From a virus (taxonomy: Duplodnaviria; Heunggongvirae; Uroviricota; Caudoviricetes), in the IMG/VR virus record IMGVR_UViG_3300045988_019110, positions 1-35,010 of that record: a stretch of DNA of 35,010 nucleotides; one strand, written 5' to 3'. The translations under genes and the position numbers were made by a program. A model generated the notes under the pieces. The model searched no databases. It was not told the DNA's origin and was given only the letters and a program-made list of their open reading frames with translations. Shown here in pieces: positions 10,618-34,832 of this stretch (its first letter is position 1; each line of letters opens with the position of its first letter).

Positions 10618-11293
10618 GATTGGCCTCGTAAACTGCTTTTGCGAAACCTCGTGGGGTGAGGCTGCGGATTGTCTTTGTTCTGGCGCTCTTTCCGCCGAGT
10701 TTAGCCCAACCAGGGTTATCCCCGCTATCAGCGGCAACTACAGCAACGTCGGGCATAACAAACCCATTGCCTACCCATAGGCACGTCTTTTTAACATAGG
10801 CATCCCGCGCTGGGATAACATCCGGAAACATTGGATGCGTGTCGTCTTCCGGTAGATAGCCGCCGTATTCGTGCGGGTTGAACACATAATCAGGCTTACG
10901 CCATAAAGATGAAAGAACACTAACCGGGTTCTCAATCATATAGGGTACGTTATACTTTTTAGCCAGACGTGCCGCCACTTTGCATGTAATCACGGCCTCT
11001 ACCTGAAACGTCGGGTTATTCTTGCGCTTAGCTTCGAAATGGCGCGACCCACTAACGGCTAAATCCGTGCATGGGGGGAACGAAAAAATAATATCTGGCG
11101 CAACCTCGAAGTCGAATTTATTATCAATCCACGCGTTTATATAGTGGATGTTCTCGTGTTCAACCCTCGCGCCCAATCGTGCGTAGTCTCCGTGGTCCGC
11201 GCCATCATAGTTGAAACAATAGCAAGTATGGCCTGCTTCTGCCCACGGCCGGGCCATAAGGCCCGAACCGTCAAACAATGACCAGACAATCAT
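10610..11293 (-). CDS. compact DNA cytosine-C5 methyltransferase-like protein
   Basis: 227 aa with motif I-like LFDGSGL, motif IV-like FPPCT (catalytic Pro-Cys), motif VI-like IENPV and GNGFV near C-terminus; ATG overlaps upstream stop. Confidence 0.5.
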   Translation of the reverse strand: MIVWSLFDGSGLMARPWAEAGHTCYCFNYDGADHGDYARLGARVEHENIHYINAWIDNKFDFEVAPDIIFSFPPCTDLAVSGSRHFEAKRKNNPTFQVEAVITCKVAARLAKKYNVPYMIENPVSVLSSLWRKPDYVFNPHEYGGYLPEDDTHPMFPDVIPARDAYVKKTCLWVGNGFVMPDVAVVAADSGDNPGWAKLGGKSARTKTIRSLTPRGFAKAVYEANHV

Positions 11294-11481
11294 TTAGCCA
11301 CCAGAACTAACTCTTTACGCCCGAACGCCGTAACGTTACCGGTTACATCTTCGATAACCAGTTTACCGTTCGACTCGACGTACACCGTATCAACGGCAAC
11401 AGGACGACGGGTCTTAACGTTGAAAATCATGTCGCCAGGTACGATGTCACGTGCTGGTTTACGGTCATATTCGTATTTCAT
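11290..11481 (-). CDS. hypothetical protein
   Basis: 63-aa ORF with AGGA RBS; translationally coupled to downstream gene. Confidence 0.4.
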   Translation of the reverse strand: MKYEYDRKPARDIVPGDMIFNVKTRRPVAVDTVYVESNGKLVIEDVTGNVTAFGRKELVLVAK

Positions 11482-11520
11482 TTCTCAATTCCTTATAGTT
11501 AAGGCCCCGAAGGGCCTGTA

Positions 11521-11775
11521 TTAGTTAGATAATTCGGCTTGAACTTGCTTAATAAGTTCTCTAGCCGTTGTGAAGTCTACAGACAGACACTTAGCGACGT
11601 CTTCGGTCAGCACTTTGCAGCCAACTGACCCGAAACCGAGAATACGGTTTACCTCAGAAACCTTCATGGACCATGAGTAATTAGCCGACGCGCCAGTGTA
11701 TTTACCGATTCGAACAGATGAATCGATTGAACCCATAATCATGGTGTTTACTGACAGTTGAAGTTCGATAGCCAT
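11521..11775 (-). CDS. hypothetical protein, first gene downstream of leftward promoter P1
   Basis: 84-aa ORF with aagga RBS, immediately downstream of the TTGACA-17-TATAGT promoter. Confidence 0.45.
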   Translation of the reverse strand: MAIELQLSVNTMIMGSIDSSVRIGKYTGASANYSWSMKVSEVNRILGFGSVGCKVLTEDVAKCLSVDFTTARELIKQVQAELSN

Positions 11776-11777
11776 TT

Positions 11778-12095
11778 TTATAATTCCTTATATTGTTGGG
11801 GTATGTGCTTACTATAATAGCTCGCTATTAGGGTGTCAACCTGTTTAACCGAACCAACGACAAAAACATTCGCGCCACGTTTTCGGAATCTTTCATGTTC
11901 ACGTAACTGGTGCGGGTCTGGCTTCGTGTTTTCGTCTTTCTTCACCTCGACGAACCAGACGATGCCGCCAGGGAGAATTACCAGCAGGTCGGGAGCGCCG
12001 GAACGTCCTTCGTAAGACAGCTTACGAACGAGGCCCCCCAGGGCCTCGAATCGCTCTTTTGCGTATTTCTGTATTTTGCCCTCAGGCGTACTCAT
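11778..12095 (-). CDS. VRR-NUC domain nuclease
   Basis: 105 aa; PD-(D/E)XK-type motif GAPDLLVILPGGIVWFVEVKK typical of VRR-NUC. Confidence 0.6.
   Translation of the reverse strand: MSTPEGKIQKYAKERFEALGGLVRKLSYEGRSGAPDLLVILPGGIVWFVEVKKDENTKPDPHQLREHERFRKRGANVFVVGSVKQVDTLIASYYSKHIPQQYKEL
11811..11839 (-). promoter_or_regulatory. sigma70-type promoter P1 (TTGACA-17-TATAGT) with palindrome in spacer
   Basis: On - strand: TTGACA (11839-11834), 17-nt spacer containing AATAGCgaGCTATT, TATAGT (11816-11811); overlaps the 3' end of the VRR-NUC ORF. Confidence 0.5.
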
Positions 12096-12297
12096 CTATA
12101 CACCCCTCGCGTTTCGTATGTTCAATACCGCAGCGCGGACAGATTCGGCGGTCTTCTTCATAGAACCAGTAGATTTTCATTCCAGCACCCATAGATAAAT
12201 TGCGATGAACATGCTCAATATGGCAACCATCATGCCGTATTGCCCCTCGTGACAGTAGACACCGGCGGCGAATCCCGCCAGTACCGCGATAATCAGT

Positions 12298-15200
12298 TTA
12301 CTTGGCATAACGTTTTAACTCCTGACCTTCTGCTACAAGAGGAAACCCCTCGGCCCATTCCGGTAATTCACACATCAACCGCTCGAGTTCAGCGACATTG
12401 TATTCCGGCGCATCTGGAGTTTCGCACACCAGTTCATCGTGTACCGAGAGTACGATAGGATACCCACCACGCTCAACGTTAATCATCGCATAGGCAAGTA
12501 AATCACGGCACAGCGCCTGAACAATGTTTTCGCAGGCCTTGCCGCCGTGTGTGTACAGGGTAGTCCATTGGCGGGTTAACTGGTTTTCGCCTTGATACTT
12601 GATTCGCACATTCGTGTTTACCCGTCCGTCTTCATCTGTTTCCTTTGTCACACTAACCCCGATTCCCGGATAGGAAAGGATACGACCTGACGGCAACTCC
12701 ATACACAACCACCAACCCGGAACCTTCCTGCCGGATGAATCAAATTCTACAGTGCGCCATATGCGGATAGCCCTTTCCCCGTTCCTGCGCAAGTGCGCTC
12801 CCGCCCAAAATTCACGACCAGGGTTACGAACAGCGGCTAAAATTCCGTCTTTAAGGTCGCGCCAGAAAGCTACTGTTTCCGGGTGTGACTCGCGCCACAT
12901 ACGCTTGATCGCGTCGCATGTGCGCCACACTTTCTTGTCCAGAATATACGACGGTCGGTCGTCCTTTTCGCCCGGATGCGGCGGTCGCTTTGCTTCCTGG
13001 ATACGCGCCCACTCATAACCGCGTGCGGTAGCTGCCCATATGTGGTCAGGGAATGTACCGTCCATTGTTTTAGCCATCTCAATAAGGTCGAGGCCTAAGT
13101 TTTTGGCGAACGTAACGAACGCTCCGACACCCCCCTCATAGCCTAGGCCAAGCTCGCAGTTATGCGCCACAAGAAAGCCAGAGTCTGAGGCTATAAGAAA
13201 ACGGTTGCCGTCTTCCACATCAATCAGGTCGTACACCGGCTCGCAGTAGGTTAATTTCCCGCTCAAGTTCAGCAATGCGGGCAACGGCTGCATCGTACTT
13301 TCGTTGAAGCTCGGGTATTTGCCGTCTGTTTCGGCAGTTTTCAGAACGGCTGACAAACCGAATGTTTCCAGGTTCGTAGTTACCGTCTGTGTCGATTCTA
13401 TCCATTTCGAGGTTCGGGTCATCCCAGCCTTCCAGAGTTTGAACATATCTAAGAAAAGACCTTTTATCAGTCCTCCACTGGTCGAATACCGTGATGCCTC
13501 TTGCCCCGTAGTTTTTATAACCCTTATCCCTGGGGCTTGTTGTTCGCGTGATCGCCGCTGACAGCCGGTTGAGTAATCGCGTTCTGTGCGCATCATCCGG
13601 CATTGCGTCTTCGTAGCAGAAATACTGTTTACGATATTTTTTTGTTGCTTCAAGGGCGCAGCGGTTGCATTGAGTGGTTTTACCAGCTCTGACGTTGTCA
13701 TAATAGACCCGCCCCGGCATCTCTCCGCAATCACATTGGACGAGTAGTTGTCTTTGGCCTTGTCGTTTTGGTAACTCGCGCAGGATAACCAAGCGTCCAT
13801 ACCTCTCTCCAGGGCGAGGCCCATCATATATCTGTTTGAAGCGAGTTGCTTTGCCTGCTTCCAGGAATGCGCCAAGATTTTGTGGTCTTCGGTCATTAGC
13901 ACCCCGTCCACATTTATTACCGGTTTCCACCCCATAAGGTGCGCGCCTTTTGTATTCACCCATTTTTCACCGCTCCATACTTTATCTGTTGATGTAACCG
14001 CCATAATATCCTTAAATCCGCCATTGGTCAAAACTTGGGTATGGCGGTGAAGGCAGGCCTTACCAATCTGGCGTAAATCTTTACGTTCCTTCTTAATGTC
14101 GTCTGGGTCCATTCCGAACATCTTGCCCGCGGTTACACAATAAATGTCCAGTCCGGCACGGAACGTATCGAGCGCGGTTTCTTCACCTGCCAGCCACGCA
14201 AGTCCGCGGCCTTCAACGTTAGAGTAATCGGCAACAACAAACTTATGTCCTGCTTCCGGTATGATGCAGCTGCGAACCGTCGATGCCGTTAGCTTGGCTA
14301 CGTCAAATCGGCGGTGAGCACGACCCTTAAGTAACGCTGAAATGCCTTTATCCAGTTCATCATCATGATAGTACCCGCGGGCCAAGTTCTGCGGCTGGAA
14401 GCCTTTACCTGCCCATCGCAGAGTACGTTTTGCCCCACCGTACTGCAGGCAACCGCGACGGCGGTCGTCCGACGAGCGGCCTAACAGCAATGGGTTGTAT
14501 TTCGTGGACGCTGTTGACGCGGCACCGAGGCGCATTTCGATAATCGTACGGGCATCGTCCGGTAAATCATCGTCCGCCAACAGGTCATTCAGCGTCGACT
14601 TCTGTGCGTTGTGGATGCGGTGTGCGGGGGCAAGTTCACGCAGAATAGGTAGAAAGTCTTTACCAGTAAGTGAGCCGCCGTATTTGCGTTGGGCTTCTTC
14701 CTGTAACTGCGCTTTGTGTTTCTCCACAGCTTCAATCGCGGCTTCCGCCAGTGCAACGTCAACCTTAAACCCACGGTCATTGATTAACTGGTCCAGCTCC
14801 AGTACACGGTCCTCGAACTCTGAGTTACCCCACCGCGGCAGTTTATGGAAGACTTCACGCATCGCAGTGATGTCGCTCACGGCGTACTTGATGAACAGTG
14901 CCCACTCGTCCGGGTGTGTTTCGGCGGTGTAACGGCGGATTTTGTAGTTCTTCGGCGTCGGTTTAGAAAAACGCTTAATCAGCGCCTTGCCGCGTTTATC
15001 TTTCGCGTTGTCCGCGGATACACCCAGCACTTCACATAGCGCATCAAGCGAACCTGGTAGCGCGTGACGAAACGCCCAAATCATCGTATCAATGGTGTTG
15101 CTTACAGGAATGTCAAAGCCCCAGCAGTGCTTCATGATGAGCCTGTCGAACATTGAGCCGTTGTGCCACACCATCTTGATGCGGCTGTTTGGCTTAACCA

Positions 15201-15396
15201 GGCGGCGCAAGGCGCGATGCAAATCCCCCGGCATGTCGCTGCCGTCGGTGCAGTCCCATACCTGCACAGGCTCGTCGTCAAAAGCATAGGTACAGATAAG
15301 CACTTCTGTAGTCGGATGCTCGGCGTAAGCGTAGGAGCCGACTTTCTTTAAATTGGCTTCGGAGAATGTTTCAAAGTCTAAGAACAGGTAACTCAT
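12298..15396 (-). CDS. DNA polymerase, family A, with 3'-5' exonuclease domain; intein-containing
   Basis: 1032-aa ORF; N-terminal exo motif LFLDFETFS; motif A VVADYSNVEGRGLAW; motif B split as RQIGKA / CELGLGYEGG by a ~299-aa insertion with intein hallmarks. Confidence 0.85.
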   Translation of the reverse strand: MSYLFLDFETFSEANLKKVGSYAYAEHPTTEVLICTYAFDDEPVQVWDCTDGSDMPGDLHRALRRLVKPNSRIKMVWHNGSMFDRLIMKHCWGFDIPVSNTIDTMIWAFRHALPGSLDALCEVLGVSADNAKDKRGKALIKRFSKPTPKNYKIRRYTAETHPDEWALFIKYAVSDITAMREVFHKLPRWGNSEFEDRVLELDQLINDRGFKVDVALAEAAIEAVEKHKAQLQEEAQRKYGGSLTGKDFLPILRELAPAHRIHNAQKSTLNDLLADDDLPDDARTIIEMRLGAASTASTKYNPLLLGRSSDDRRRGCLQYGGAKRTLRWAGKGFQPQNLARGYYHDDELDKGISALLKGRAHRRFDVAKLTASTVRSCIIPEAGHKFVVADYSNVEGRGLAWLAGEETALDTFRAGLDIYCVTAGKMFGMDPDDIKKERKDLRQIGKACLHRHTQVLTNGGFKDIMAVTSTDKVWSGEKWVNTKGAHLMGWKPVINVDGVLMTEDHKILAHSWKQAKQLASNRYMMGLALERGMDAWLSCASYQNDKAKDNYSSNVIAERCRGGSIMTTSELVKPLNATAAPLKQQKNIVNSISATKTQCRMMRTERDYSTGCQRRSREQQAPGIRVIKTTGQEASRYSTSGGLIKGLFLDMFKLWKAGMTRTSKWIESTQTVTTNLETFGLSAVLKTAETDGKYPSFNESTMQPLPALLNLSGKLTYCEPVYDLIDVEDGNRFLIASDSGFLVAHNCELGLGYEGGVGAFVTFAKNLGLDLIEMAKTMDGTFPDHIWAATARGYEWARIQEAKRPPHPGEKDDRPSYILDKKVWRTCDAIKRMWRESHPETVAFWRDLKDGILAAVRNPGREFWAGAHLRRNGERAIRIWRTVEFDSSGRKVPGWWLCMELPSGRILSYPGIGVSVTKETDEDGRVNTNVRIKYQGENQLTRQWTTLYTHGGKACENIVQALCRDLLAYAMINVERGGYPIVLSVHDELVCETPDAPEYNVAELERLMCELPEWAEGFPLVAEGQELKRYAK
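13159..14055 (-). other. intein inserted in PolA motif B
   Basis: Pol-frame residues 448-746: N-terminal CLHRHTQVLT (block A), LMTEDHKIL (block B), C-terminal VYDLIDVEDGNRFLIA...FLVAHN followed by +1 Cys (blocks F/G). Confidence 0.65.
13220..13963 (-). CDS. HNH endonuclease-like ORF nested inside the intein in an alternate reading frame
   Basis: 247-aa ORF, different frame from the polymerase; ATG with GGAG 9 nt upstream; motifs GRLVIL...CDCGEM...CNRC and YKNYGARGITVFDQW...DRIDTDGNYEPGNIRFVSRSEN. Confidence 0.5.
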   Translation of the reverse strand: MGEYKRRAPYGVETGNKCGRGANDRRPQNLGAFLEAGKATRFKQIYDGPRPGERYGRLVILRELPKRQGQRQLLVQCDCGEMPGRVYYDNVRAGKTTQCNRCALEATKKYRKQYFCYEDAMPDDAHRTRLLNRLSAAITRTTSPRDKGYKNYGARGITVFDQWRTDKRSFLRYVQTLEGWDDPNLEMDRIDTDGNYEPGNIRFVSRSENCRNRRQIPELQRKYDAAVARIAELEREINLLRAGVRPD

Positions 15397-15412
15397 TATT
15401 TTCGACCCTTAG

Positions 15413-15434
15413 TAAAAAGGCCCAATGAAGGGCC
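15413..15434 (-). terminator. rho-independent terminator (- strand) between SSB-like gene and polymerase gene
   Basis: On - strand AGGCCC-ttcatt-GGGCC hairpin followed by TTTTT. Confidence 0.45.
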
Positions 15435-15455
15435 TTAGTTAAATTGATTCAGTTA

Positions 15456-16091
15456 TCAACGGCGACGACGTTCGCGGCGAGGTGCTTCATCTTCTTCTTC
15501 GTCTTCGTCTTCCAGGTCGTCGGTGCTTGCTACTACACTGGAACCCCCGAAGCGTTTACCTTCGCCCGCATACTTGATGCCGAGGATGGTAGCGCACAAG
15601 TTTTTCCATTCTTTGTGCCACCATAGCTCTACAGATACGTTTGCTACACACCCGCTGTATACCTGCTCGCCTTCTACTTCCTGCCCGTCGATGTTGAAAT
15701 CAGGCTCGGTTTGTTTTTCGCCTTTAGCTGAGGTCATAATTACAGGTTGGCGGTTGTTAGTAGCGCGGAAATACAGACCTTCTTCAAAATCTTCAATCGG
15801 ATTGTCACGCATTGCCAGGTCACGGACGCAGCATTTGTCTGCGTGGTGGTCTACGCCGTAGTTGGCCTTCATCCATTTTTCAGCAGCAGCTGTCCCGATT
15901 GCCTCTGTTACAACTTCCAGAGCGGTGTCGTAAAGCGCGTCGATTTGAGGGTGGTCAGGCTGCATAAGAACCGTAACCTGATATTTGCCCTTAATCAGTT
16001 TACCTGTTTTCTTGTCCTCAGAGTCGGCAGCACGTTCAAATACGTTAACCCATGCAGTGTTTACTTTACGCAGATTCAGTTTCAGTCCCAC
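15456..16091 (-). CDS. putative ssDNA-binding protein (DUF2815-like) with acidic C-terminal region
   Basis: 211 aa, GTG start with GAGGG RBS; acidic tail DDLEDEDEEEDE; sits between Cas4-like exonuclease and PolA, a position typical of phage SSB in this module type. Confidence 0.4.
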   Translation of the reverse strand: MGLKLNLRKVNTAWVNVFERAADSEDKKTGKLIKGKYQVTVLMQPDHPQIDALYDTALEVVTEAIGTAAAEKWMKANYGVDHHADKCCVRDLAMRDNPIEDFEEGLYFRATNNRQPVIMTSAKGEKQTEPDFNIDGQEVEGEQVYSGCVANVSVELWWHKEWKNLCATILGIKYAGEGKRFGGSSVVASTDDLEDEDEEEDEAPRRERRRR

Positions 16092-16154
16092 AGTTCAGCC
16101 CTCATTAAGTTTAGATTTTAAGTTTACTCCGGGAACCGCCCGGCCAGTGATTTA

Positions 16155-16183
16155 ACTATAATAGCTCGCTATTCGGTAGTCAA
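16155..16183 (-). promoter_or_regulatory. sigma70-type promoter P2 (TTGACT-17-TATAGT) with palindrome in spacer
   Basis: On - strand: TTGACT, 17-nt spacer containing GAATAGcgagCTATT, TATAGT; near-identical to P1. Confidence 0.5.
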
Positions 16184-16187
16184 CACT

Positions 16188-17444
16188 TTATTCTAAATCT
16201 TCTTCACTAACCTGATTCCACTCAGGACGTTTGTCGTCTGCCGTTGCTACGCATGGCGCGCCCGGCTTACGGGTAATAAAGTCTTTCAGTTCTTCTTCCG
16301 GTATGACTTTAATAGCTTCGGTCGGTGTCATCAGCACTTCTTTAGTCAGCTTATCGCCGTAGAGTTCTGTTACTTTCTCCGTGTCTTTCCACGCACGGTT
16401 GCCCATTTTACCTTCAACCAGCTTGTACCCAGGAACTTTCTTACCAGAATGCAACGCGGCGGCCATAGCTTTCTCAACCTTGTCGATGTGCTGGCGCAAC
16501 AACGGCAACTTCTCATACTCAGCGACGAGTTGCTCCGGCGTAAGTTCAAGCGCGAAGTCGTCTTCAAGTTCTTCCGCCAGTACAGAATTAACGGTTCTTG
16601 TACGCGCGGCGCACTGTTCTGAGAACCGGCACCACTGACAACCATCGACAGACGGCTTGAAGTCCGACGCTTTCAGGTTCTTCTTGCCGCGGGAATAAGC
16701 ATCAAGGGCCAACAGCGCCCGTTTCTGCGCGAACTTAGCGAACAGTTCCAGACCTTCGACCGAGATGTCCCACTCCGACGCGCCGCCAGCGTACGGCTGG
16801 AAGATTACCAGACGAACAACTTTGATGTTATAACGTCTCTTGAGTCGGCGATAAACACCGAGAGCGTAAAGCATAAGCTGCTTGTTTTCTTTCGCTTCAA
16901 CACGATGCCGTCCTGTTTTCAGGTCGCCGATAATGAGCATGTGCTCGTCGGTGTTAGCCTGTTCCTGAACGGCAACAAGGTCAGCAGTCCCGAACGTCTC
17001 GACGCCTTCGTAACCCGGATGCAATACCTCAGTAAGATTGACGCGCATCTCGAGCTTGGAATAAGTCGCGACATCGATAATCGGTTTGCAGTAGTCGGTG
17101 TACTTTCGCACCTGCTCAATCATGTCGGCCGTAATCAGTACCGCGCCTTTCATCGGGCTGATTAGCGCCTTAATCTGGCCTTTACCCTCATCCAGCACGT
17201 AAGCACCGACTTCACGCTCTAACGGCAACGCGGTTCCTCGAATATAGGCGTTGAGATGGACCTCAGCTATGGTGTGGCACGCGGTCCCCGTAACAGCAGC
17301 TTTACCTGACGTGTTAGGAATATCTTTTTCACAGGCCAGTGATGCACTGCACGTCAGCCACTTTTTAGCGCCTGACGGCGACAGTAAGGCGTGCACATCA
17401 TTATTGCCGCCACGTTCCTTTAAAATCATACCCTGCTCTCCCAC
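16188..17444 (-). CDS. PD-(D/E)XK Cas4/RecB-like exonuclease (DUF2800-like)
   Basis: 418 aa; N-terminal LSPSGAKKWLTC motif and C-terminal Cys cluster CQWCRFSEQC typical of Cas4-like iron-sulfur nucleases. Confidence 0.6.
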   Translation of the reverse strand: MGEQGMILKERGGNNDVHALLSPSGAKKWLTCSASLACEKDIPNTSGKAAVTGTACHTIAEVHLNAYIRGTALPLEREVGAYVLDEGKGQIKALISPMKGAVLITADMIEQVRKYTDYCKPIIDVATYSKLEMRVNLTEVLHPGYEGVETFGTADLVAVQEQANTDEHMLIIGDLKTGRHRVEAKENKQLMLYALGVYRRLKRRYNIKVVRLVIFQPYAGGASEWDISVEGLELFAKFAQKRALLALDAYSRGKKNLKASDFKPSVDGCQWCRFSEQCAARTRTVNSVLAEELEDDFALELTPEQLVAEYEKLPLLRQHIDKVEKAMAAALHSGKKVPGYKLVEGKMGNRAWKDTEKVTELYGDKLTKEVLMTPTEAIKVIPEEELKDFITRKPGAPCVATADDKRPEWNQVSEEDLE

Positions 17445-17698
17445 TGGTCAATTAAATGTCGTGTCTTATGGTCACAATGCATAGCCCAGCCATACATAGA
17501 CTCGAAGACATAAAAGTCAGGTTTGGCGAAAGTCGTGCGCTTAATCTGTGACACGTGACGGCCTATATCTTTAGGCCGCGGTACTTTGCCTAAGTACGCC
17601 ATCTCTTCCATCAGGTGCGCACCGGACGGCGCACGTAACAGCCATAGCGCCTCCGTGTTATCCCGCCTGTCAACGGCGCGGTAGAGTTGGTAAATCAT
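17426..17698 (-). CDS. hypothetical protein
   Basis: 90-aa ORF overlapping the downstream gene start by 19 nt. Confidence 0.35.
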   Translation of the reverse strand: MIYQLYRAVDRRDNTEALWLLRAPSGAHLMEEMAYLGKVPRPKDIGRHVSQIKRTTFAKPDFYVFESMYGWAMHCDHKTRHLIDQWESRV

Positions 17699-17740
17699 AT
17701 TTCCGACCCTCAGTTAAAGCGGCCCGAAGGCCGCCTATAG

Positions 17741-18223
17741 TTATTCTTCTTCGAAATACTTGTTCTTGATTGCCGTCAGGCGTTCCAGGTACTCGGCCAG
17801 GTCTTCGTCTTTAATCGCGGTAATCTTCATCTTCTTACCGGTGAACTCTTCCAGCAGTTCGTCGGAATCATCACACGCGGCATCGCTAGGACCTTCGTTA
17901 ATCGCATCGTCGATAGCCTGAATCTGGCCACGAAGAGACTTGTAATCGACTTCTTCTTTCTCTTCTTCCGGCTCTGGCGTCGGTTCCTCTACTTTAGCTT
18001 TACGCGGCTTGCGTTTTGGCTTCTCTTCTTCCGCCGGTTTGGTGTCAACGATGTCTTCACCTTCGACCGGGATTTCTTTTGTTGTCTCGATTGTTGCGGT
18101 TTGTTCAACGACCCCGGCGACTAATGCAGTTTTTGCAACATTAACTTGTTTTGCACTGTTCGCAGCAATCAGTTCATGTGCAACTACGAAACGTTCCAGT
18201 AATTTTAAAAATTGTTCTAACAT
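17741..18223 (-). CDS. acidic, low-complexity early protein of unknown function
   Basis: 160 aa, Glu/Asp-rich with a short basic KPKRKPRKAK patch; first gene downstream of promoter P3. Confidence 0.45.
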   Translation of the reverse strand: MLEQFLKLLERFVVAHELIAANSAKQVNVAKTALVAGVVEQTATIETTKEIPVEGEDIVDTKPAEEEKPKRKPRKAKVEEPTPEPEEEKEEVDYKSLRGQIQAIDDAINEGPSDAACDDSDELLEEFTGKKMKITAIKDEDLAEYLERLTAIKNKYFEEE

Positions 18224-18254
18224 TTGTTTCTCTCCTCTCGTTTGGTATGGGCTA

Positions 18255-18284
18255 ACTATAATAGCTAACTATTCAGGTTGTCAA
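18255..18284 (-). promoter_or_regulatory. sigma70-type promoter P3 (TTGACA-18-TATAGT) with palindrome in spacer
   Basis: On - strand: TTGACA, spacer containing GAATAGttagCTATT, TATAGT; divergent from the HTH gene at 18349. Confidence 0.5.
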
Positions 18285-18348
18285 TGGGCTTTCCTAAAAT
18301 AATTAATATGGTACTATTCACATATCAACTGACTAAGGAGTAATTGAC

Positions 18349-18564
18349 ATGCAACCATCTGAACTAGGCATCCGTGTAGAGCAACGCCGCAAAGAACTCG
18401 GCATCTCTCAACGCCGTCTGGCGGTCCTGGCTGGCGTTTCCCAGGGCGCGATTAATCAGCTGGCGCTCGGTGTAACTCAGGACGTACGCCCGGCAACACT
18501 GTTCAAGCTGGCGGAAGTGCTGGAAGTAGACGCCAAGTGGCTGGCGTTCGGTGAAGGGGCTTAA
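18349..18564 (+). CDS. XRE-family helix-turn-helix transcriptional regulator (Cro/CI-like)
   Basis: 71 aa; classic HTH GISQRRLAVLAGVSQGAINQL; AGGAG RBS; lone + strand gene between - strand operons. Confidence 0.7.
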   Translation: MQPSELGIRVEQRRKELGISQRRLAVLAGVSQGAINQLALGVTQDVRPATLFKLAEVLEVDAKWLAFGEGA

Positions 18565-18578
18565 GCCCCTTTCTTTTT
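18554..18578 (+). terminator. rho-independent terminator after HTH gene
   Basis: Palindromic GGGGCTTAAGCCCC hairpin overlapping the stop codon, followed by TTTCTTTTT. Confidence 0.5.
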
Positions 18579-18580
18579 AC

Positions 18581-20821
18581 CTATTCTAAATCCTCCTCTG
18601 TCACCACCAGCATTTCATTCGGCTCATATATCGTCTTTGGTCTTAATCTGTCACCCATCTTTTCCGGTATCCGGTAGGTGCCCGGTATAACTTCACCGTT
18701 AACATCGCACCCTAACATCAACTCACCGTCTTTCAGCATCTTCTCGAGATGATGGTTGGTTATGGCGTGGTCGCCCGAATTCGCCACTATCTGCCGTTGT
18801 GTAAAACCTCGTCCGGTGTCGTCTGACTGTTGCAGGTCCTCCAGCGCGGCAAGTATTGATTCCTTACGCCCTTCATCCTTTCCACGTTTTACAGCGTTCT
18901 TTACGTTTTCTTTACCTTCTTTCGTCAGCCCTTCTTCCCGCTCTTTCTCCTCGTCAGTTTTGAACGGCTCGAAACCCCACGGCATCAGCACAAGCGCCTT
19001 GTGCGGCTCAGGCAGGTCCAGGTTTACGATTGTGCCGTATTCCTCTGTGCTACCCAGGAACTCAACCGCACGGTACTCTTTCGGCGGTGGTGCTTCACGG
19101 AACTGTACCGACTCCAGCACCATGCCAACCGTCTTCTGTTGAGGCCCGTGCTTAAATTTAGAGTGGTATACGTTTATCTGACGGTCGGTAGCGCGTTCAA
19201 TTGTCAGTTCCACGTCAACGCCCGCATACAGCGCGCCGCTGCCACGGGCTTTCTTTCCGCCCTTCGGTGTGTGGTGAACAACACCTACCGCGGCTTTAGT
19301 CGCATCACGCACTTCTTTCAGGATGGCGATAACTTTACCCATACCGATTGCCGTTGATGAACTGTTCTCGTCAAACTTATCAATCGTCAGGGCCAGGGTC
19401 TGGTTGAGGGTGTCAAACGCGACCATGCCGATAGGTTCATCGCCAGCGGTTTCACGCATTAACTTAATCAGGTTTTTCAGTTTTCCGACTTCGCCCATGT
19501 CGATGACATGTACATAATCTTTACCTTCCTCTCCGTATTTAGCCGCGAGTGCATCAATACGTGTGCGGGTAGCCGCGCCACCCTCACCGTCGATATAGAA
19601 ATGGTGACAGCGCTGGGTATCCGCCCCTGCGAAGCGATAGCCAGCGGCGCTAAGGTACATCACCCCCAGCGTATAGAATGATTTGTACGTGCCAGATTCT
19701 CCGACGATATCCCAGATACAATCCGACGGCATGTACCCTTCTACGACGAAATCAGCCTTTACCGGTTCTGGTAATTCGTCCTCCTCGAAGTCCTCGTCGT
19801 CTTCCAGGTCGTCCAGGCTGCATGAAACGGATTCACGCGCACCCCATCCGATAGCCTCAGCCACTTCACTAAACGGCAGCCCGGTCGCGTCGCACGCATA
19901 CTTCCACACCTCTTTCGGTGACATGCCTTCGGTTGCCGTAATGTCGGTGTCGTGAATCATGGTTACGTTCGGTGCTTCGTAGCCCTCTCGCGGGAAACAC
20001 AGCAGGAAGTCGTCCGGCCGCGGTGTCGGGTCGCTGTAGTTTTCCGCATGTTCTGGTGTGGCGGGCATCTTAAGGCCGCGAGGTGTCATGACACCGCCGT
20101 ACTCAAAAGCCAGTGCCTCGAACGCGTCTGTAAACGCGGTGCGCAGTTCTTCCGGTATCTGGTAATCCGATGCGCTGCTCACCTCGTAATCCGGGATGCC
20201 TTCCAGTAACTCATCCGGGTCAATCAGGTCGTTGCGACGCGACCAGATAACCTGAGAGCCAACCGGCGGCAGGTACATCGGTTGGGACAGAGTAAACCCG
20301 CTGCGGTCAGCGCCCATGCCTTTGAAGAAGTGCTCCAGCAATCCATGACGAACACGGATGATGTCGCCACCCTCAACAGGACTGGCCAGCGGCATGACGA
20401 CACGAAAGCGCGGAGACTCATCGGTATGGGATGCCGTGGTATATAGGCACATCGCCTGGCGGCTGCGCTTAACCAGGCGCACAGCTTCCTGATACTCTTC
20501 CGGCGTTGCACTGTCGAAGTCCAGATACGCCAGCGACGATTTGCTTACAGACGCATCACAGCGATAGAAGAAGCCTTTACGCGCTTGCTTAAAGTCGCCG
20601 GTTTCCAGGTCTTTTACGGTGCTGTGAGTAGAGTCGCACGCGGCGGTGATATATCCCGGCGCGGTCTTCGGGTTAATCCCGTCTCGGACAGAATCGAGCG
20701 GCTGGATTAACTCTTTCAGGTCGTCCAGTGTTGCCGTGTGTGTAGTTCTGACGTTTATATCCTTTTTCTCTGCTCGCGCGTTGCGGCGTGACCACGAGTA
20801 GGATAAAATTACATCGGACAT
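18581..20821 (-). CDS. primase-helicase (AEP-type primase-polymerase N-terminal domain fused to RecA-like helicase)
   Basis: 746 aa; AEP-like motifs AYLDFD and TTASHTDESPRF; Walker A GESGTYKS and VVHHTPKGG-type helicase motif. Confidence 0.7.
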   Translation of the reverse strand: MSDVILSYSWSRRNARAEKKDINVRTTHTATLDDLKELIQPLDSVRDGINPKTAPGYITAACDSTHSTVKDLETGDFKQARKGFFYRCDASVSKSSLAYLDFDSATPEEYQEAVRLVKRSRQAMCLYTTASHTDESPRFRVVMPLASPVEGGDIIRVRHGLLEHFFKGMGADRSGFTLSQPMYLPPVGSQVIWSRRNDLIDPDELLEGIPDYEVSSASDYQIPEELRTAFTDAFEALAFEYGGVMTPRGLKMPATPEHAENYSDPTPRPDDFLLCFPREGYEAPNVTMIHDTDITATEGMSPKEVWKYACDATGLPFSEVAEAIGWGARESVSCSLDDLEDDEDFEEDELPEPVKADFVVEGYMPSDCIWDIVGESGTYKSFYTLGVMYLSAAGYRFAGADTQRCHHFYIDGEGGAATRTRIDALAAKYGEEGKDYVHVIDMGEVGKLKNLIKLMRETAGDEPIGMVAFDTLNQTLALTIDKFDENSSSTAIGMGKVIAILKEVRDATKAAVGVVHHTPKGGKKARGSGALYAGVDVELTIERATDRQINVYHSKFKHGPQQKTVGMVLESVQFREAPPPKEYRAVEFLGSTEEYGTIVNLDLPEPHKALVLMPWGFEPFKTDEEKEREEGLTKEGKENVKNAVKRGKDEGRKESILAALEDLQQSDDTGRGFTQRQIVANSGDHAITNHHLEKMLKDGELMLGCDVNGEVIPGTYRIPEKMGDRLRPKTIYEPNEMLVVTEEDLE

Positions 20822-20878
20822 ATTATAATTCCTTCAGCAAGTAATTTGGCCTCGGCGCTCTAACGTCGGGGCTTTCTT

Positions 20879-21112
20879 TTATTCCAGGTCTTCTAAAGTA
20901 GCGGTCATTCCGCGAACTTCAGCGACAGCACTATATTTCCCGCCGACATTTTTCACGACACCGGATTTAACCAACACCTTCAATGACCCTTCAATGATGG
21001 CGGAACTATAGTACTTAAAATAACTGCGGCGCAAGTCGATAACACTGCACGACCCTTTTTTACGTGTTAATGAAACGACCGCCGTAAATACGCGTGACTG
21101 GAACTCGGTCAT
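20879..21112 (-). CDS. hypothetical protein
   Basis: 77-aa ORF translationally coupled to the upstream HTH gene; C-terminus LEDLE. Confidence 0.4.
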   Translation of the reverse strand: MTEFQSRVFTAVVSLTRKKGSCSVIDLRRSYFKYYSSAIIEGSLKVLVKSGVVKNVGGKYSAVAEVRGMTATLEDLE

Positions 21113-21279
21113 TTCACGTTCTCCTTAATCCACGCTTCCACTTTCTCCGGGTCAAACGTACCTGGCTGCCGGCGGCCCATAATGCGGGTACAGCAATCAG
21201 GGAACTTCCCGCTCTTTAACCAGTTATTCAGCGTGCGACGAGTAACCCCGATGCGCTCTGCTACTTCATTCTGCGTCAT
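21109..21279 (-). CDS. AlpA-like helix-turn-helix DNA-binding protein
   Basis: Start re-set to ATG at 21279 with GAGGG RBS; MTQNEVAERIGVTRRTLNNWLKSGKFP HTH; candidate TTGATT-17-TATACT promoter upstream. Confidence 0.5.
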   Translation of the reverse strand: MTQNEVAERIGVTRRTLNNWLKSGKFPDCCTRIMGRRQPGTFDPEKVEAWIKENVK

Positions 21280-21620
21280 TCTCAAACCCTCATTATCAGT
21301 TAACAAAATCGAGTATACATTGCGAATAATGGGAAATCAAACATAATCGCACCTATTGACATTATGAAAATCTTCGTTTAAGGTGCTTCTATATCTTAGT
21401 TACTTTGATTCTTGTTCACCTTGTAAACCCCGCCGAAAACGAGCGCCCAACGCGAAGTGTTAGGCGGCAGTTTACTGAACATAAGAATTATCGTAACTTT
21501 CCTTCCTTAATATCTCCGGTTGCCCTGGGCAAGCTCTATTCTCATCGGCAGCATATCTCTTAAGTAACTGATTTTCTTAATGTACCGTAGATTCACAACC
21601 GTAAAAATGTAACCCTTACC

Positions 21621-21647
21621 GGGCAGGCTTAAGGCCTGCCCTTTAGT
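21621..21647 (+). terminator. terminator-like hairpin inside the 470-bp early intergenic region
   Basis: GGGCAGGC-ttaag-GCCTGCCC 8-bp stem followed by TTTAGTT on the + strand, with no + strand ORF upstream. Confidence 0.4.
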
Positions 21648-21713
21648 TACCAAGTAATAAGAATAAAGGCACAACCCTACCTGAAGAATCACAACGGCAA
21701 TGTAACTATTCTC

Positions 21714-21742
21714 TTGCACACCCCAACATAATAGGATACTAT
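21714..21742 (+). promoter_or_regulatory. sigma70-type promoter (TTGCAC-17-TACTAT) for rightward small-gene operon
   Basis: TTGCAC 21714-21719, 17-nt spacer accccaacataatagga, TACTAT 21737-21742; same element family as 23326, 34832(-) and window start. Confidence 0.45.
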
Positions 21743-21776
21743 TCACTTATCGAAACGAGACATAAGGAATTCAGAA

Positions 21777-21995
21777 ATGAACAAAGCGACCGCAAGCGTA
21801 GTTTCCGCAATCAAAGAAGTTTACGGCATCGATATTTCAGAGCGCGTAATTATCGGGAACAAACGCAACTTCTTTACGTTCGACACCGACGGAATGGATG
21901 AAAATGATTTTAACAACGTACAACGTTTCGCTAACGATAAAGGGCTTCGTAACGAGCCTGCGGGTTACAAGAAATTCGCTATCTACTTTAAATAA
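21777..21995 (+). CDS. hypothetical protein
   Basis: 72-aa ORF with aagga RBS, first gene after promoter. Confidence 0.45.
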   Translation: MNKATASVVSAIKEVYGIDISERVIIGNKRNFFTFDTDGMDENDFNNVQRFANDKGLRNEPAGYKKFAIYFK

Positions 21996-22004
21996 GACAG
22001 AGGA

Positions 22005-22199
22005 GTGAGGGTTATGTTTAAGAAGGGTCAGTTGGTTAGGGATAAAGTTAGCGGTGATTTATTCACTGTAATAGAGTCGAAGTTAATGTGGTTCGGTTTT
22101 GTAGAGGTTAATAGCGTAGCTGGGTTTGGTAAAGGGTTACTCCGTAAATGTGATTTAGAACTCATCGGCAACAATTTTAAATTCAAAGGGGCGAAGTGA
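22005..22199 (+). CDS. hypothetical protein
   Basis: 64-aa ORF with gaggag RBS. Confidence 0.45.
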   Translation: MRVMFKKGQLVRDKVSGDLFTVIESKLMWFGFVEVNSVAGFGKGLLRKCDLELIGNNFKFKGAK

Positions 22200-22438
22200 T
22201 GCAAATAATAATTACAGATAACACAGTTACCTACGAAAAAGGTGGCGACAATACTCTGGAGAGCATAGGCGTAAATATAGGTGACGTTTTTGATGTGCTT
22301 GGTACTGTATCGGGCGGCTGGTGGATTAAGGTTGGACGCAACAAAGTTCCGGTAACTAAGGCCGAAGCGGAAATATACACAACGGCATCGAATCATGATG
22401 CTCGTGCGGACGACTCTGAGGGAGGTTGCCGTAAATGA
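22196..22438 (+). CDS. hypothetical protein
   Basis: 80-aa ORF, start overlaps upstream stop. Confidence 0.45.
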   Translation: MMQIIITDNTVTYEKGGDNTLESIGVNIGDVFDVLGTVSGGWWIKVGRNKVPVTKAEAEIYTTASNHDARADDSEGGCRK

Positions 22439-22626
22439 GAATTCGTATAACTGATATTGATTATGTGGACCCGCGCGATGGTGACAATTTGCCGCTTAGT
22501 TACTGTGGTGTTGCCCTCGGTGATGAGTTCGAGGTTATCCATGCAGGGACTGACATGTTCATTATTGAGTATGTAGCGGGGTATATGGTCGTGCACTCCT
22601 GTGAATGCGAAGTTCTGGAGGACTAA
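22435..22626 (+). CDS. hypothetical protein
   Basis: 63-aa ORF, start overlaps upstream stop. Confidence 0.45.
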   Translation: MRIRITDIDYVDPRDGDNLPLSYCGVALGDEFEVIHAGTDMFIIEYVAGYMVVHSCECEVLED

Positions 22627-22629
22627 GTT

Positions 22630-22824
22630 ATGAACCCATATAACCAATTTCGTTTGCGCCGTCTGATTGGTGGTCTGCGCGCAGCCGAGTTTGTTGTTAA
22701 ATGCTGGGGGAAAGCTGAGATATCCTATAGACAGCCGTGGCATTTGGCTCACGCTAAGGCGGTAGCGCAGTACCGTGAGTACAAGTTAAACAGTTTCCTA
22801 AAGCACCATGGGGTCGAGTTATGA
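22630..22824 (+). CDS. hypothetical protein
   Basis: 64-aa ORF in tightly packed operon. Confidence 0.4.
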   Translation: MNPYNQFRLRRLIGGLRAAEFVVKCWGKAEISYRQPWHLAHAKAVAQYREYKLNSFLKHHGVEL

Positions 22825-22964
22825 GAGAAGCATTCGAACGGTGGGCTGTCGTTGAGGGCCTACCTGTTAACAAGGGTTCGAAGAAAGAGTACCTGAACGT
22901 TAAGACGCGTCTCGCGTGGCGGGCGTGGAAAGCTGGTGTGTTGTTTATCGCGAATCAGAGGTGA
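22821..22964 (+). CDS. hypothetical small protein (47 aa)
   Basis: ATG overlaps upstream stop (ATGA); fills the gap to the next gene; not in ORF track (<60 aa). Confidence 0.3.
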   Translation: MREAFERWAVVEGLPVNKGSKKEYLNVKTRLAWRAWKAGVLFIANQR

Positions 22965-22967
22965 GAT

Positions 22968-23165
22968 ATGGGTGAGTGGATTAAGTGCAGTGAGCGGATG
23001 CCAGGTGATTTTGAAGATGTGCTGGTTTCAGACGGGGTTGACGTTGAGGTGATGTGGTGGGATTGCGACGGTTTCTGGGATTGTTGGGCGCCGCGTAACT
23101 CAAATATCAGTAGTGAGGATGTTACCCACTGGATGCCGTTACCAGAGCCGCCATCGCTGGCGTAA
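22968..23165 (+). CDS. DUF551-like protein
   Basis: 65 aa with Trp-rich core and C-terminal HWMPLPEPP motif characteristic of DUF551 phage proteins. Confidence 0.5.
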   Translation: MGEWIKCSERMPGDFEDVLVSDGVDVEVMWWDCDGFWDCWAPRNSNISSEDVTHWMPLPEPPSLA

Positions 23166-23210
23166 CAGGTGGTGTAACAGGTCAATAGTTTGGGATTTTA
23201 CTGAGTGACT

Positions 23211-23240
23211 TACGCTGCTACACAGCAGCGTATCATTTTT
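23211..23240 (+). terminator. rho-independent terminator
   Basis: ACGCTGCT-acac-AGCAGCGT hairpin followed by a T-rich tract (atcatttttctcattttt). Confidence 0.5.
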
Positions 23241-23325
23241 CTCATTTTTGTTCTATTTCACCAAACGCAACAATCGAAGCGACTATTGCAGGAGATGCAA
23301 CAATACAAACACCAATAAAATTTAC

Positions 23326-23354
23326 TTGCACACTTATATAGAATAGGATACTAT
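23326..23354 (+). promoter_or_regulatory. sigma70-type promoter (TTGCAC-17-TACTAT) with perfect GAATAG-N4-CTATTC palindrome
   Basis: TTGCAC 23326-23331; TACTAT 23349-23354; palindrome GAATAGgataCTATTC overlapping the -10. Confidence 0.45.
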
Positions 23355-23385
23355 TCAGTTACACAAACGAGAGGAGAGGCAGAAG

Positions 23386-26999: not shown

Positions 27000-27021
27000 A
27001 TCTATTTTCTGTAATGACTAG

Positions 27022-27050
27022 TTGACTATTACCTACGACCCTACTATATT
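27022..27050 (+). promoter_or_regulatory. sigma70-type promoter (TTGACT-17-TATATT)
   Basis: TTGACT 27022-27027, 17-nt spacer, TATATT 27045-27050; followed by AACGAGA leader and ATG at 27084. Confidence 0.5.
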
Positions 27051-28360: not shown

Positions 28361-28642
28361 ATGGCACGCACTGTTGCATCGAGATTCACTGATATTGAAT
28401 CTGCGATAGAAGAAGCTGTTTATAGCAAATTCTGTAACCCCTCTGCGACACATAACTACGGGGTTATCATTAAATACGGCAAGTTTGAAATCAGGAGAGT
28501 GCGCGCCGATCGTCCGCACGAGTTTTTATGGACCACAGAAAGCCTAGTCCCGCGGTGCCACGTTTACACAAGTGGCGCGCACACTATTTTTGTGGACATC
28601 ACTAAGAAAGACATTACTGTCACTAAAGGAGAGACAAATTGA
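28361..28642 (+). CDS. hypothetical protein
   Basis: 93-aa ORF. Confidence 0.4.
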   Translation: MARTVASRFTDIESAIEEAVYSKFCNPSATHNYGVIIKYGKFEIRRVRADRPHEFLWTTESLVPRCHVYTSGAHTIFVDITKKDITVTKGETN

Positions 28643-28875
28643 TTACCAGCATCCCTAAACTGATTGAAGAGTATGGAAATATGTCTGAGCCCTGCCGACA
28701 AACCGGCATCTGCGAAATGACAATTGCGAAGTACAGCAAAGACGTGAATTGCGAGCGCCACGTAATTTATAACAACCGTCTTATGACGCACGTTAAGACA
28801 AGTCCGGTGTTATTCACGCGCCGTGGTATCACTAAAACTGAGCAACGCATTGCTAAAGAGGAGAGCGGGGGATGA
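28639..28875 (+). CDS. hypothetical protein
   Basis: 78-aa ORF, start overlaps upstream stop. Confidence 0.4.
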   Translation: MITSIPKLIEEYGNMSEPCRQTGICEMTIAKYSKDVNCERHVIYNNRLMTHVKTSPVLFTRRGITKTEQRIAKEESGG

Positions 28876-32724: not shown

Positions 32725-33801
32725 ATGCTATTAACTTTAGCACCACAGGGTTTATCTATGAGCTTACTTACATCCCTAATCAGCCACCAGATTTGGCTGC
32801 AACGCACCGCATCCGGTGAAGTGAAAGACCTCGCACCGTTCATTAAGGAGATGCGGGACGAAATCAAACGGCAGGTGCTGCTGTTTGGTGACGACGGGCG
32901 CAGCACTGCGCGACTGAATAAACTGTTACGCGACCTCGAAGAAGCACTGACAGGACTTACTGGTGACTGGCAAACAAAGCTGACAGAAGACCTCAAGGAA
33001 CTGGCGGCGTATGAGGCCGAGTGGAACGCAAAGACCCTTACCGCCAACGTGAATGCGGAATTTGTTACACCTACCGCCGAACAGGTGTGGGCTGCCGCTG
33101 AGTTTCAACCCTTATCGTTAAGCGACAAGCCTGTTGACTTCACGAAGCTGATGTCGGGCTGGGGCGAAACCGAAGTCGCGCGCCTTGTAACCGGCGTTAA
33201 GATGGGCTTTGTACAAGGCCAAACCACACGGCAGATTGTTAAGAATGTCGTAGGCGCTGGTGGCCTGGCCGACATCTCTGAACGTAACGCTGCGACGGTA
33301 ATCCGCACCGCGCTATCTCACGTGTCCAACGAAGCCCGTAACGAGACGTACCGCCAGAACGCCGACATCATCGGGAAGTACGAGTGGGTGTCAACATTGG
33401 ACAGCCGTACCAGTACGATTTGCAGAGCCAGAGACGGAATGACGTGGGAAATTGGTAAAGGGCCGATGCCCCCCGCCCATCCGAATTGCCGGTCGTGCAC
33501 GGCTCCGGTAATCAGTTCAGAGTTCGACTTCCTCGATAAAGGCGCAAAGCGCGCGGCTAAAGGTGCGGACGGCGGCACTCAGGTAAGCGCGGACACCACT
33601 TACTACGAGTTCCTTAAACAACAACCGGCGTGGTTTCAGGATGAAGCGCTCGGCCCGGTGCGGGGTAAGATTTTCCGTAACAGCGGTATATCGCCGGAAG
33701 AGTTTCGCGTAATATCTGTAGATGGTTTCGGGAATCCGCTCACGCTTAAGCAGATGGCGGAACTCGATAAACGTGTTGCTGATTATCTGAAAGGGGGTTA
33801 A
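32725..33801 (+). CDS. head morphogenesis protein (SPP1 gp7 / Mu F-like)
   Basis: 358 aa; PPAHPNCRSC motif characteristic of the Mu F-like minor head protein domain; position after portal. Confidence 0.65.
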   Translation: MLLTLAPQGLSMSLLTSLISHQIWLQRTASGEVKDLAPFIKEMRDEIKRQVLLFGDDGRSTARLNKLLRDLEEALTGLTGDWQTKLTEDLKELAAYEAEWNAKTLTANVNAEFVTPTAEQVWAAAEFQPLSLSDKPVDFTKLMSGWGETEVARLVTGVKMGFVQGQTTRQIVKNVVGAGGLADISERNAATVIRTALSHVSNEARNETYRQNADIIGKYEWVSTLDSRTSTICRARDGMTWEIGKGPMPPAHPNCRSCTAPVISSEFDFLDKGAKRAAKGADGGTQVSADTTYYEFLKQQPAWFQDEALGPVRGKIFRNSGISPEEFRVISVDGFGNPLTLKQMAELDKRVADYLKGG

Positions 33802-34262
33802 TGATGGGCTTTTTCAAAGTAACTGATGTTCCGTCGCGTCGCGTAGTCCAGTACGCCCGCGTGTCTGGCTCCGGTGAGAACGTGGTGTTTATTGAGGATG
33901 AAAGTGTACTAGGTACACCAGTAGACGATATGCCGTTTGCGGACAAGACCGGTATTTCGCTACCTGCGGCGGGTATGCTTTACGAGATTCCGTATCTGGC
34001 GGATGTGGGCGATGTGTATTTCTCAGTGCAACCGCAGGACACTGAACTGGCGGACGGAAGCGCAACTATCACTGTCGATGTTAAGGCAGGCAAAGCACCC
34101 TATGCTTTGACATGGTACAAAGACGGCAAGGAAGTGGTCAACGCCCCGGAAGAGGCTTTGTCTCTGACGGTTAATGCAGCCGGCGAATACTTCGTTAAAG
34201 TCGCCGATGCCGACGGCGTGGAGGCGGTAAGCAAAGCGGCGAAGGTTACTAAGCCAGAATGA
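33801..34262 (+). CDS. structural protein with Ig-like C-terminal domain (decoration/scaffold-associated candidate)
   Basis: 153 aa; C-terminal YALTWYKDGKEV...AGEYFVKV pattern resembling Ig-like domains; aaggggg RBS. Confidence 0.4.
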   Translation: MMGFFKVTDVPSRRVVQYARVSGSGENVVFIEDESVLGTPVDDMPFADKTGISLPAAGMLYEIPYLADVGDVYFSVQPQDTELADGSATITVDVKAGKAPYALTWYKDGKEVVNAPEEALSLTVNAAGEYFVKVADADGVEAVSKAAKVTKPE

Positions 34263-34265
34263 TAA

Positions 34266-34293
34266 AAGGCCCCATAATGGGGCCTTAGTTTTG
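34266..34293. terminator. bidirectional terminator between convergent genes
   Basis: AGGCCCC-ataat-GGGGCCT hairpin flanked by A-run and T-rich tract. Confidence 0.5.
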
Positions 34294-34295
34294 CG

Positions 34296-34484: not shown

Positions 34485-34496
34485 TTGAGACCTCTG

Positions 34497-34775: not shown

Positions 34776-34803
34776 TTAAGCACCTCCCGTTTAAGTTATC
34801 CGA

Positions 34804-34832
34804 ATAGTACCCTATTATATTGGGGTATGCAA
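34804..34832 (-). promoter_or_regulatory. sigma70-type promoter (TTGCAT-17-TACTAT) driving reverse-oriented cassette
   Basis: On - strand: TTGCAT, spacer accccaatataataggg, TACTAT; followed by palindrome CTATTCGAATAG at 34881-34892 in the same region. Confidence 0.45.

Follow-up and report, generated by a model that had tools for sequence, protein, structure and literature searches.

A 14-bp palindrome in two geometries of predicted host-type promoters, with a Cro-like candidate reader, in a Kagunavirus-like siphophage

We analyzed a 35,010-nt stretch of viral DNA (IMG/VR record IMGVR_UViG_3300045988_019110, positions 1 to 35,010; hereafter the window), for which an original prediction had described a promoter family, TTGCAY-N17-TACTAT, with a conserved ACCCCAA spacer and copies in both orientations. 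The observation holds for the most part, and we found that the true repeated unit of this element is a 14-bp palindrome, AATAG-N4-CTATT, a key conserved unit that the prediction had parsed wrongly. With a probability of roughly 0.6, we consider these sites to be host sigma70-type promoters that each carry the palindrome as an operator, probably read by a small Cro-like protein, HTH71, that shuts them down. The arrangement is conventional phage wiring, used here genome-wide in a virulent phage and in at least two registers, and it challenges no current concept. According to megablast, the window comes from a Kagunavirus-like siphophage of the Kagunavirus/Jerseyvirus group (Guernseyvirinae), 88-92% identical in nucleotide sequence to Escherichia phages CR01, phiSD1, phage 26 and Bas73.

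TTGCAY-N17-TACTAT, which we call class 2, was found exactly at the three claimed sites, and no further match appeared in the window even with one mismatch. By chance 0.14 matches were expected, and none of 100 shuffles gave three. The truncated copy reported at the first bases of the window also proved genuine, as the window edge cuts through the middle of its palindrome and relatives have the complete element there. The predicted class 2 promoters are as follows.

21714-21742, plus strand: P21714, with -35 TTGCAC (21714-21719), ACCCCAA (21720-21726), putative operator AATAGgataCTATT (21730-21743) and -10 TACTAT (21737-21742).
23326-23356, plus strand: P23326, with -35 TTGCAC (23326-23331), spacer ACTTATATAG, putative operator GAATAGgataCTATTC (23341-23356) and -10 TACTAT (23349-23354).
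34803-34832, minus strand: P34804, with -35 TTGCAT (34827-34832), ACCCCAA (34820-34826), putative operator (34803-34816) and -10 TACTAT (34804-34809).
1-23, minus strand: promoter at the window edge, with -35 TTGCAC (18-23), ACCCCAA (11-17) and a single operator arm (3-7).

As had been proposed, the complete copies lie ahead of operon starts, 29-35 nt from the start codons at 21777, 23386 and 34775 (minus strand), and terminator-like hairpins (21621-21641 and 23211-23232) precede the two plus-strand copies. P21714 stands ahead of a small-gene operon (ATG 21777), and its orthologues are near-invariant in more than 40 relatives. P23326, a GATAG type without ACCCCAA, precedes an operon beginning at ATG 23386 (DUF7170), while P34804 precedes the single gene 34775-34497. 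In relatives, the edge promoter is found ahead of a leftward accessory operon encoding superinfection immunity and a repair exonuclease. All three complete sites have the sigma70-type layout, that is, a -35 starting with TTG, a spacer of 17±1 bp and a -10 of the form TAnnnT, and the critical TTG and TAnnnT are kept with ideal spacing. The conservation of the spacer was overstated: ACCCCAA is present in three of the four copies and missing from the 23326 copy, and half of the supposed spacer conservation is the left arm of the operator.

The placement of the palindrome is not random. AATAG-N4-CTATT has six exact copies in the window (at 11816, 16160, 18260, 21730, 23342 and 34803), all at promoters. 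Allowing up to one mismatch gives ten sites (six exact and four with one mismatch), where chance would give 0.73. Its six copies in the window and five in Jerseyvirus Kenya-K7 far exceed those of every other 5-N-5 palindrome, none of which has more than two. Five of the six exact copies are located in non-coding DNA, which makes up 9.0% of the window, and the sixth falls within the final 60 nt of a gene, just ahead of the following one; the motif is absent from ordinary coding sequence. The perfect palindrome GAATAGgataCTATTC was confirmed at 23341-23356. A second one, CTATTCGAATAG, had been placed at 34881-34892 and described as overlapping the 34804 copy; it actually lies six bases off, at 34887-34898, about 55 bp from that copy and without overlap, as part of an adjacent rightward TTGACT promoter.

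The same half-site occurs in the first promoter family of the original prediction, TTGACA-17/18-TATAGT, which we call class 1. The idea of a second promoter geometry sharing its half-site with this family is supported. Three class 1 promoters are predicted.

18255-18284, minus strand: TTGACA-18-TATAGT, with putative operator GAATAGttagCTATT (18260-18273) in the spacer, ahead of the leftward gene 18223-17741 and onward.
16155-16183, minus strand: TTGACT-17-TATAGT, with putative operator at 16160-16173, upstream of the single-stranded-DNA-binding protein and DNA polymerase genes.
11811-11839, minus strand: TTGACA-17-TATAGT, with putative operator at 11816-11829, inside the 3' end of gene 11778-12095 (minus strand).

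These three promoters are near-consensus and hold the palindrome inside the spacer. In class 2 it sits 6 bp further downstream, so that CTAT forms part of the -10 TACTAT. In 57 genomes or loci, AATAG begins either 10-11 nt or 16 nt after the start of TTG, giving two registers, which indicates that the position of the dyad is independent of the core promoter elements. Because the palindrome covers the -10 in one family and lies in the spacer in the other, it behaves as an operator and not as a polymerase element. The distance from the end of the -10 to a shared leader, AACGAG(AGGAG), is 12 nt in class 1 (36 of 36) and 11 nt in class 2 (57 of 62), and this constancy supports the -10 assignments of both classes. 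The consistent leader distance, together with the 29-35 nt to the start codons and the upstream terminators, is in line with sigma70-type promoters. We also considered YATAAT (TATAAT or CATAAT) as the true -10 and rejected it, since no conserved -35 lies 16-18 bp upstream, TTGCAC is just 7 bp off and the leader distance favours TACTAT.

We compared the sites with those of nine complete GenBank relatives and of 47 IMG/VR loci retrieved via the regulator gene. The complete relatives have 5-9 exact palindromes per genome, at syntenic promoters, and the same sites recur in the 47 loci. At class 2 sites the arms are intact in 86 of 90 cases, with 30 distinct centre tetranucleotides; invariant arms around a variable centre are the signature of a dimeric protein that touches the arms only. 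In Jerseyvirus the arms are kept despite diverged flanks, as in TTGCGT-aacccaatat-AATAGagtaCTATT or in a variant with an 18-bp spacer, TTGACG-taaccaaacat-AATAG, and Serratia phage Tsm2 retains the dyad at 2-3 promoters. A single phage regulator for leftward and rightward transcription, as originally proposed, is the most economical reading of these invariant arms, variable centres and different registers, conserved in Kagunavirus, Jerseyvirus and a Serratia phage.

The window encodes a small protein of a fitting type, which lies beside the operators.

18349-18564, plus strand: HTH71, a 71-amino-acid HTH_3 (XRE) protein, candidate operator-binding repressor.
18305-18318, plus strand: imperfect operator AATATggtaCTATT, over the -10 of the predicted HTH71 promoter (TGgTACTAT, 18309-18317).

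HTH71 matches HTH_3 with E = 2e-12, and its best solved match is 434 Cro (E = 5e-7), which aligns over the full length and also has 71 amino acids. The gene occupies the divergent region between the perfect operator of the 18255-18284 promoter and the imperfect one at 18305, and the latter suggests possible weak autoregulation. This small HTH_3 gene adjoins two copies (18260 and 18305) of a symmetric site of about 14 bp in which the arms, and not the centre, are conserved; Cro and its operators show the same pairing. An extended -10 at the HTH71 promoter was rejected, as TGgTACTAT is seen in the window and is not conserved in Jerseyvirus. HTH71 was present in every relative examined, with an identity of 95-100% in Kagunavirus, 51% in Jerseyvirus and 42-43% in Tsm2 and Salmonella phage FSL SP-031 (a Cornellvirus, hereafter SP-031). 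The gene is found in 502 GenBank phage records, in some of which it is annotated as 'Cro' or 'repressor'. In Bas73 (34027-34239) and K1G (33428-33640) it is intact and unannotated, and Bas73 annotates a short open reading frame (ORF) on the opposite strand instead. HTH71 homologues in unrelated phages adjoin other 5-N4-5 dyads (ACAGTtaaaACTGT in CobraSix, AAAGGataaCCTTT in Mcat6 and ATAACcaaaGTTAT in Magia), so this architecture seems typical of the HTH71 family.

Taking these data together, we propose that the TTGCAY-N17-TACTAT sites would be host sigma70-type promoters of insulated early or accessory units, in which the right arm of the 14-bp operator overlaps the -10. In the three leftward replication-gene promoters the putative operator lies 6 bp further upstream, in the spacer. 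The class 1 and class 2 sites would form one regulon of 5-9 operators per genome, read by a dimer of HTH71 that, as it accumulates, would occlude RNA polymerase and shut the promoters off. Promoter activity, the identity of the binder and the direction of regulation are inferred here from sequence.

The closest known parallel is the operators of Cro and CI in phages 434 and P22. Common to both are a 14-bp dyad built of conserved 5-bp arms around a free 4-bp centre, the overlap with core promoter elements and the position of the regulator gene in a divergent promoter region, in addition to the length of HTH71 and its best match to 434 Cro. Unlike the tripartite OR and OL of 434 and P22, a single operator per promoter is spread here over 5-9 promoters genome-wide, and the half-site is AATAG instead of ACAA. 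Moreover, the phage group is regarded as virulent, and neither a CI-type repressor nor a lysogeny module was seen in the window; no CI-like two-domain repressor was found among the scanned ORFs, and with one operator per promoter there is no OR1-3 arrangement of a lysogeny switch.

Several observations weigh against this interpretation. The class 2 hexamers match the strict sigma70 consensus at 7 of 12 positions, which is also why a generic sigma70 scan missed these promoters. Between Kagunavirus and Jerseyvirus the arms are unchanged, yet HTH71 retains just 51% identity, and the operator at its own promoter is imperfect, with only the right arm retained in Jerseyvirus. SP-031 has an HTH71 homologue (43% identity) yet no AATAG-N4-CTATT, so the link between protein and site is not universal; a comparison of arms and recognition helix across Tsm2 and SP-031 met no recognisable dyad at the syntenic SP-031 promoters and so had nothing to link. 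The model does not account for CCCAAYAT, a tract that lies between -35 and operator and is a separate lineage-conserved feature in three of the four copies and in two genera. Our literature search found no promoter mapping or binding study for the group, including Jersey-like phages, MB78 and Ent1. Finally, in time-course RNA-seq of Kagunavirus K1B4 the homologue of a second DNA-binding protein, orf65 (described below), was 'early' and that of HTH71 'middle' (PMC12645636), which does not decide between the two proteins; these data have no 5'-end resolution and a coarse, asynchronous timing, and promoter classes are not assignable from them (PMC12645636).

The tract raises the possibility, which we consider fairly unlikely, that class 2 is a separate temporal class in which a second phage factor, perhaps orf65, recognises the weak TTGCAC -35 together with CCCAAYAT, on or beside the -35. 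Such promoters would depend on, or be modulated by, a factor in addition to sigma70, and this would be compatible with a Cro-type operator. In a logo of 111 unique modules, conservation is unbroken from about -36 to +2, tract included (cTTGCacACcCCAAtATAATAGGgTACTATTCA), and the flanks vary among paralogous sites. The left operator arm and YAT make up part of this conserved stretch. What is left of it, CCCAA, is also conserved in Jerseyvirus, where the tract persists as AACCCAATAT and AACCAAACAT, and the non-consensus TTGC of the -35 is itself conserved. In IMG/VR the specific module pattern was restricted to this group of phages, which have 3-4 copies on each contig of about 44 kb; a broader pattern, TTG-N13-AATAGNNTACTATT, was too unspecific and returned mostly unrelated contigs, lambdoid ones with a PR'-like element among them. 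Also in favour, the class 2 promoter of Tsm2 has TATGTGGCAT in place of the tract, and Tsm2 lacks orf65 too. On the other hand, phylogeny confounds this correlation between tract and orf65, for which there is a single outgroup, and P23326-type promoters do without the tract in all Kagunavirus relatives, their orthologues all carrying ACTnnGATAG instead. Because the tract is missing both from these orthologues and from the Tsm2 class 2 promoter, it is dispensable for the class 2 family. In addition, a near-identical string, CATACCCCAACAATATAAGGA, is the transcribed leader of the class 1 promoter at 11811-11839 (this leader contains CATACCCCAAC at 11795-11805), which suggests shared ancestry and not a -35-proximal site. 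In the window, ACCCCAA occurs eight times, four of them at promoters. The tract may be a second-factor site, a relic of common leader and promoter ancestry, or a cassette spread with mobile accessory genes, the last of which has some support from the moron-like unit described below. A composite class 2 site, with the Cro-like repressor on the dyad and a second factor such as orf65 on TTGCAC-ACCCCAAYAT, strikes us as rather doubtful; if true, it would be a two-input temporal switch in a virulent siphophage, setting accessory and host-takeover genes apart from replication genes.

The operator might also be read by a protein other than HTH71, which we judge unlikely. The candidates would be orf65, a NinH-like protein (28639-28875) or an enterobacterial host factor.

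21109-21306, minus strand: orf65, a 65-amino-acid HTH_17 or excisionase-like DNA-binding protein, alternative or second regulator.

orf65 is 85% identical between Kagunavirus and Jerseyvirus (HTH71, 51%), in line with the identical arms; its likely promoter (TTGATT-17-TATACT, 21340-21312) has no operator, its homologue is early in K1B4, and SP-031 combines an HTH71 homologue with the lack of a palindrome. Nevertheless, orf65 is confined to the Kaguna/Jersey clade and is absent from Tsm2, which has both an HTH71 homologue and the palindrome at 2-3 promoters. Dyads of 14 bp are typical targets of the 434 Cro family, and HTH_17 or excisionase-type proteins are atypical readers of them. HTH71 is favoured as the operator reader because of its likeness to 434 Cro, its position between operators and its presence in all relatives, while orf65 is missing in the dyad-bearing Tsm2. 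We therefore take HTH71 as the most likely binder of AATAG-N4-CTATT.

Recent spread of promoter cassettes together with morons could account for the near-identical 33-bp modules, which would then be mainly recombination joints with a spacer that is perhaps unselected; we find this very unlikely as an explanation of the modules, although P34804 does head a moron-like unit.

34266-34775, minus strand: moron-like unit downstream of P34804, with a 92-amino-acid ORF (34497-34775) and then a terminator hairpin (34286-34266).

The unit has its own promoter, one gene and its own terminator, varies among relatives and runs against the flow of the late operon. Its ORF matched nothing in Pfam or PHROG and lacks a homologue in the nine close relatives; it resembles an accessory gene particular to this strain, in a slot of the head module that varies. 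In CR01 (45068-45235), the slot behind the P34804 equivalent holds a second copy of the first gene of the 21714 operon (window 21777-21995; 87% over 55 amino acids), evidence that promoter-plus-gene cassettes move within these genomes. Similar morons have been reported for Serratia phage eta, in its related structural module (PMC3918226). But the homology of the modules stops exactly at functional promoter boundaries and not at arbitrary points, and tract and arms persist between genera whose flanks have fully diverged.

That the class 2 sites are promoters of a phage-encoded RNA polymerase, as stated for a PHIRE-flagged repeat of Escherichia phage fBC-Eco01 (seven matches of 'tgAATAGTa-ccTATTat-T'; PMC9825357), is extremely improbable, given that Pfam and PHROG scans of 40-odd window ORFs and the annotations of Bas73, K1G, CR01, Tsm2 and SP-031 contain no RNA polymerase or sigma, hence no single-subunit enzyme of the T7 type, and that the element is palindromic and lies in different registers within sigma70-like promoters. 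The fBC-Eco01 repeat corresponds to this element read from the other strand, at seven syntenic positions; that work mentions neither the palindrome nor its two registers nor the Cro-like gene, and the label is a mislabelling contradicted by gene content. The modified polymerase of the original prediction is likewise not supported, as TTG-17-TAnnnT is kept and the distance from -10 to leader is like that of the near-consensus family. The idea recalls the middle promoters of T4 with MotA and AsiA, where a conserved box peculiar to the phage precedes a -10 of the form TAnnnT. In contrast to these, the TTG -35 is kept here at 17 bp, and the tract, at -29 to -20, is missing from one family member; no MotA or AsiA homologue appeared in Pfam scans of the window ORFs.

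To our knowledge, the transcription programme of Kagunavirus/Jerseyvirus phages is essentially unstudied. These phages are widely isolated for therapy and food safety, and about 500 GenBank records carry the regulator gene. A simple map of two promoter geometries, one 14-bp operator and one Cro-like candidate would explain the timing of early, accessory and replication genes, and would correct the published phage-polymerase assignment of the fBC-Eco01 repeat. It may also supply compact repressible promoter parts for engineering these phages and a marker of the accessory-gene slots that differ within the group.

Two rightward TTGACT promoters, at 27017 and 34894, also have a one-mismatch palindrome covering the -35, and these sites may tentatively represent a third register (class 3).

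27017-27050, plus strand: one-mismatch palindrome ACTAGttgaCTATT over the -35 of TTGACT-17-TATATT.
34887-34927, plus strand: CTATTCGAATAG followed by AATAGttgaCTTTT, over the -35 of a rightward TTGACT-17-TAAGCT, divergent from P34804.

Both rightward promoters head into packaging and head genes, and the same regulator might act on these later promoters at lower affinity.

Cornellvirus-type relatives (SP-031, 10724-11097, and another contig) have a Cro-like gene whose helix starts with VTQS and not VSQG. They keep a leftward promoter, TTGCAC-18-TATAGT, and have AATAG-N4-CTATT nowhere; their operator, if any, differs from it.

Twelve unrelated lambdoid contigs carry TTGCAG-actgggggtg-AATAGCGTACTATT directly downstream of a Q-like gene (protein end ...EYINDKAGFF). 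This element occurs once per contig and resembles the late promoter PR' with a conserved spacer; it has the palindrome by coincidence. The lambda PR' with its Q-binding element, an example of a sigma70 promoter in which binding of a regulator keeps the spacer conserved, is like class 2 in having a conserved sequence between the -35 and -10 of a host-type promoter, and differs in being single-copy, downstream of the Q gene and devoted to antitermination, whereas here a dyad operator stands at many promoters.

Read by synteny with Bas73 and K1G, the window begins with a divergent region ahead of the tail assembly chaperone, then tail genes; leftward replication genes span about 9193-21306, and rightward small-gene, lysis and packaging genes run from 21777 and continue into the head module. 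The Pfam and PHROG scans identified DNA polymerase, helicases, nuclease, terminase, portal and lysis proteins, and an Rfam scan of the window gave zero matches. The DNA polymerase ORF (12298-15396, minus strand) encodes 1032 amino acids, about 300 more than the 726-amino-acid polymerase annotated in Bas73 and K1G, and the reported best-scoring DNA_pol_A stretch covers residues 371-447 only; it may carry an insertion or fusion.

Between orf65 and P21714, 21307-21776 comprises about 400 bp of conserved non-coding DNA. Besides the likely orf65 promoter (21340-21312, minus strand), it contains TTGACA-17-TAAGGT (21356-21384, plus strand), the strong hairpin at 21621-21641 and another at 21466-21444 (minus strand). 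An 'ORF' annotated here in relatives (21507-21746, minus strand) resembles a junk translation, and the underlying DNA is kept even in Jerseyvirus. This stretch could be a small RNA or a replication origin.

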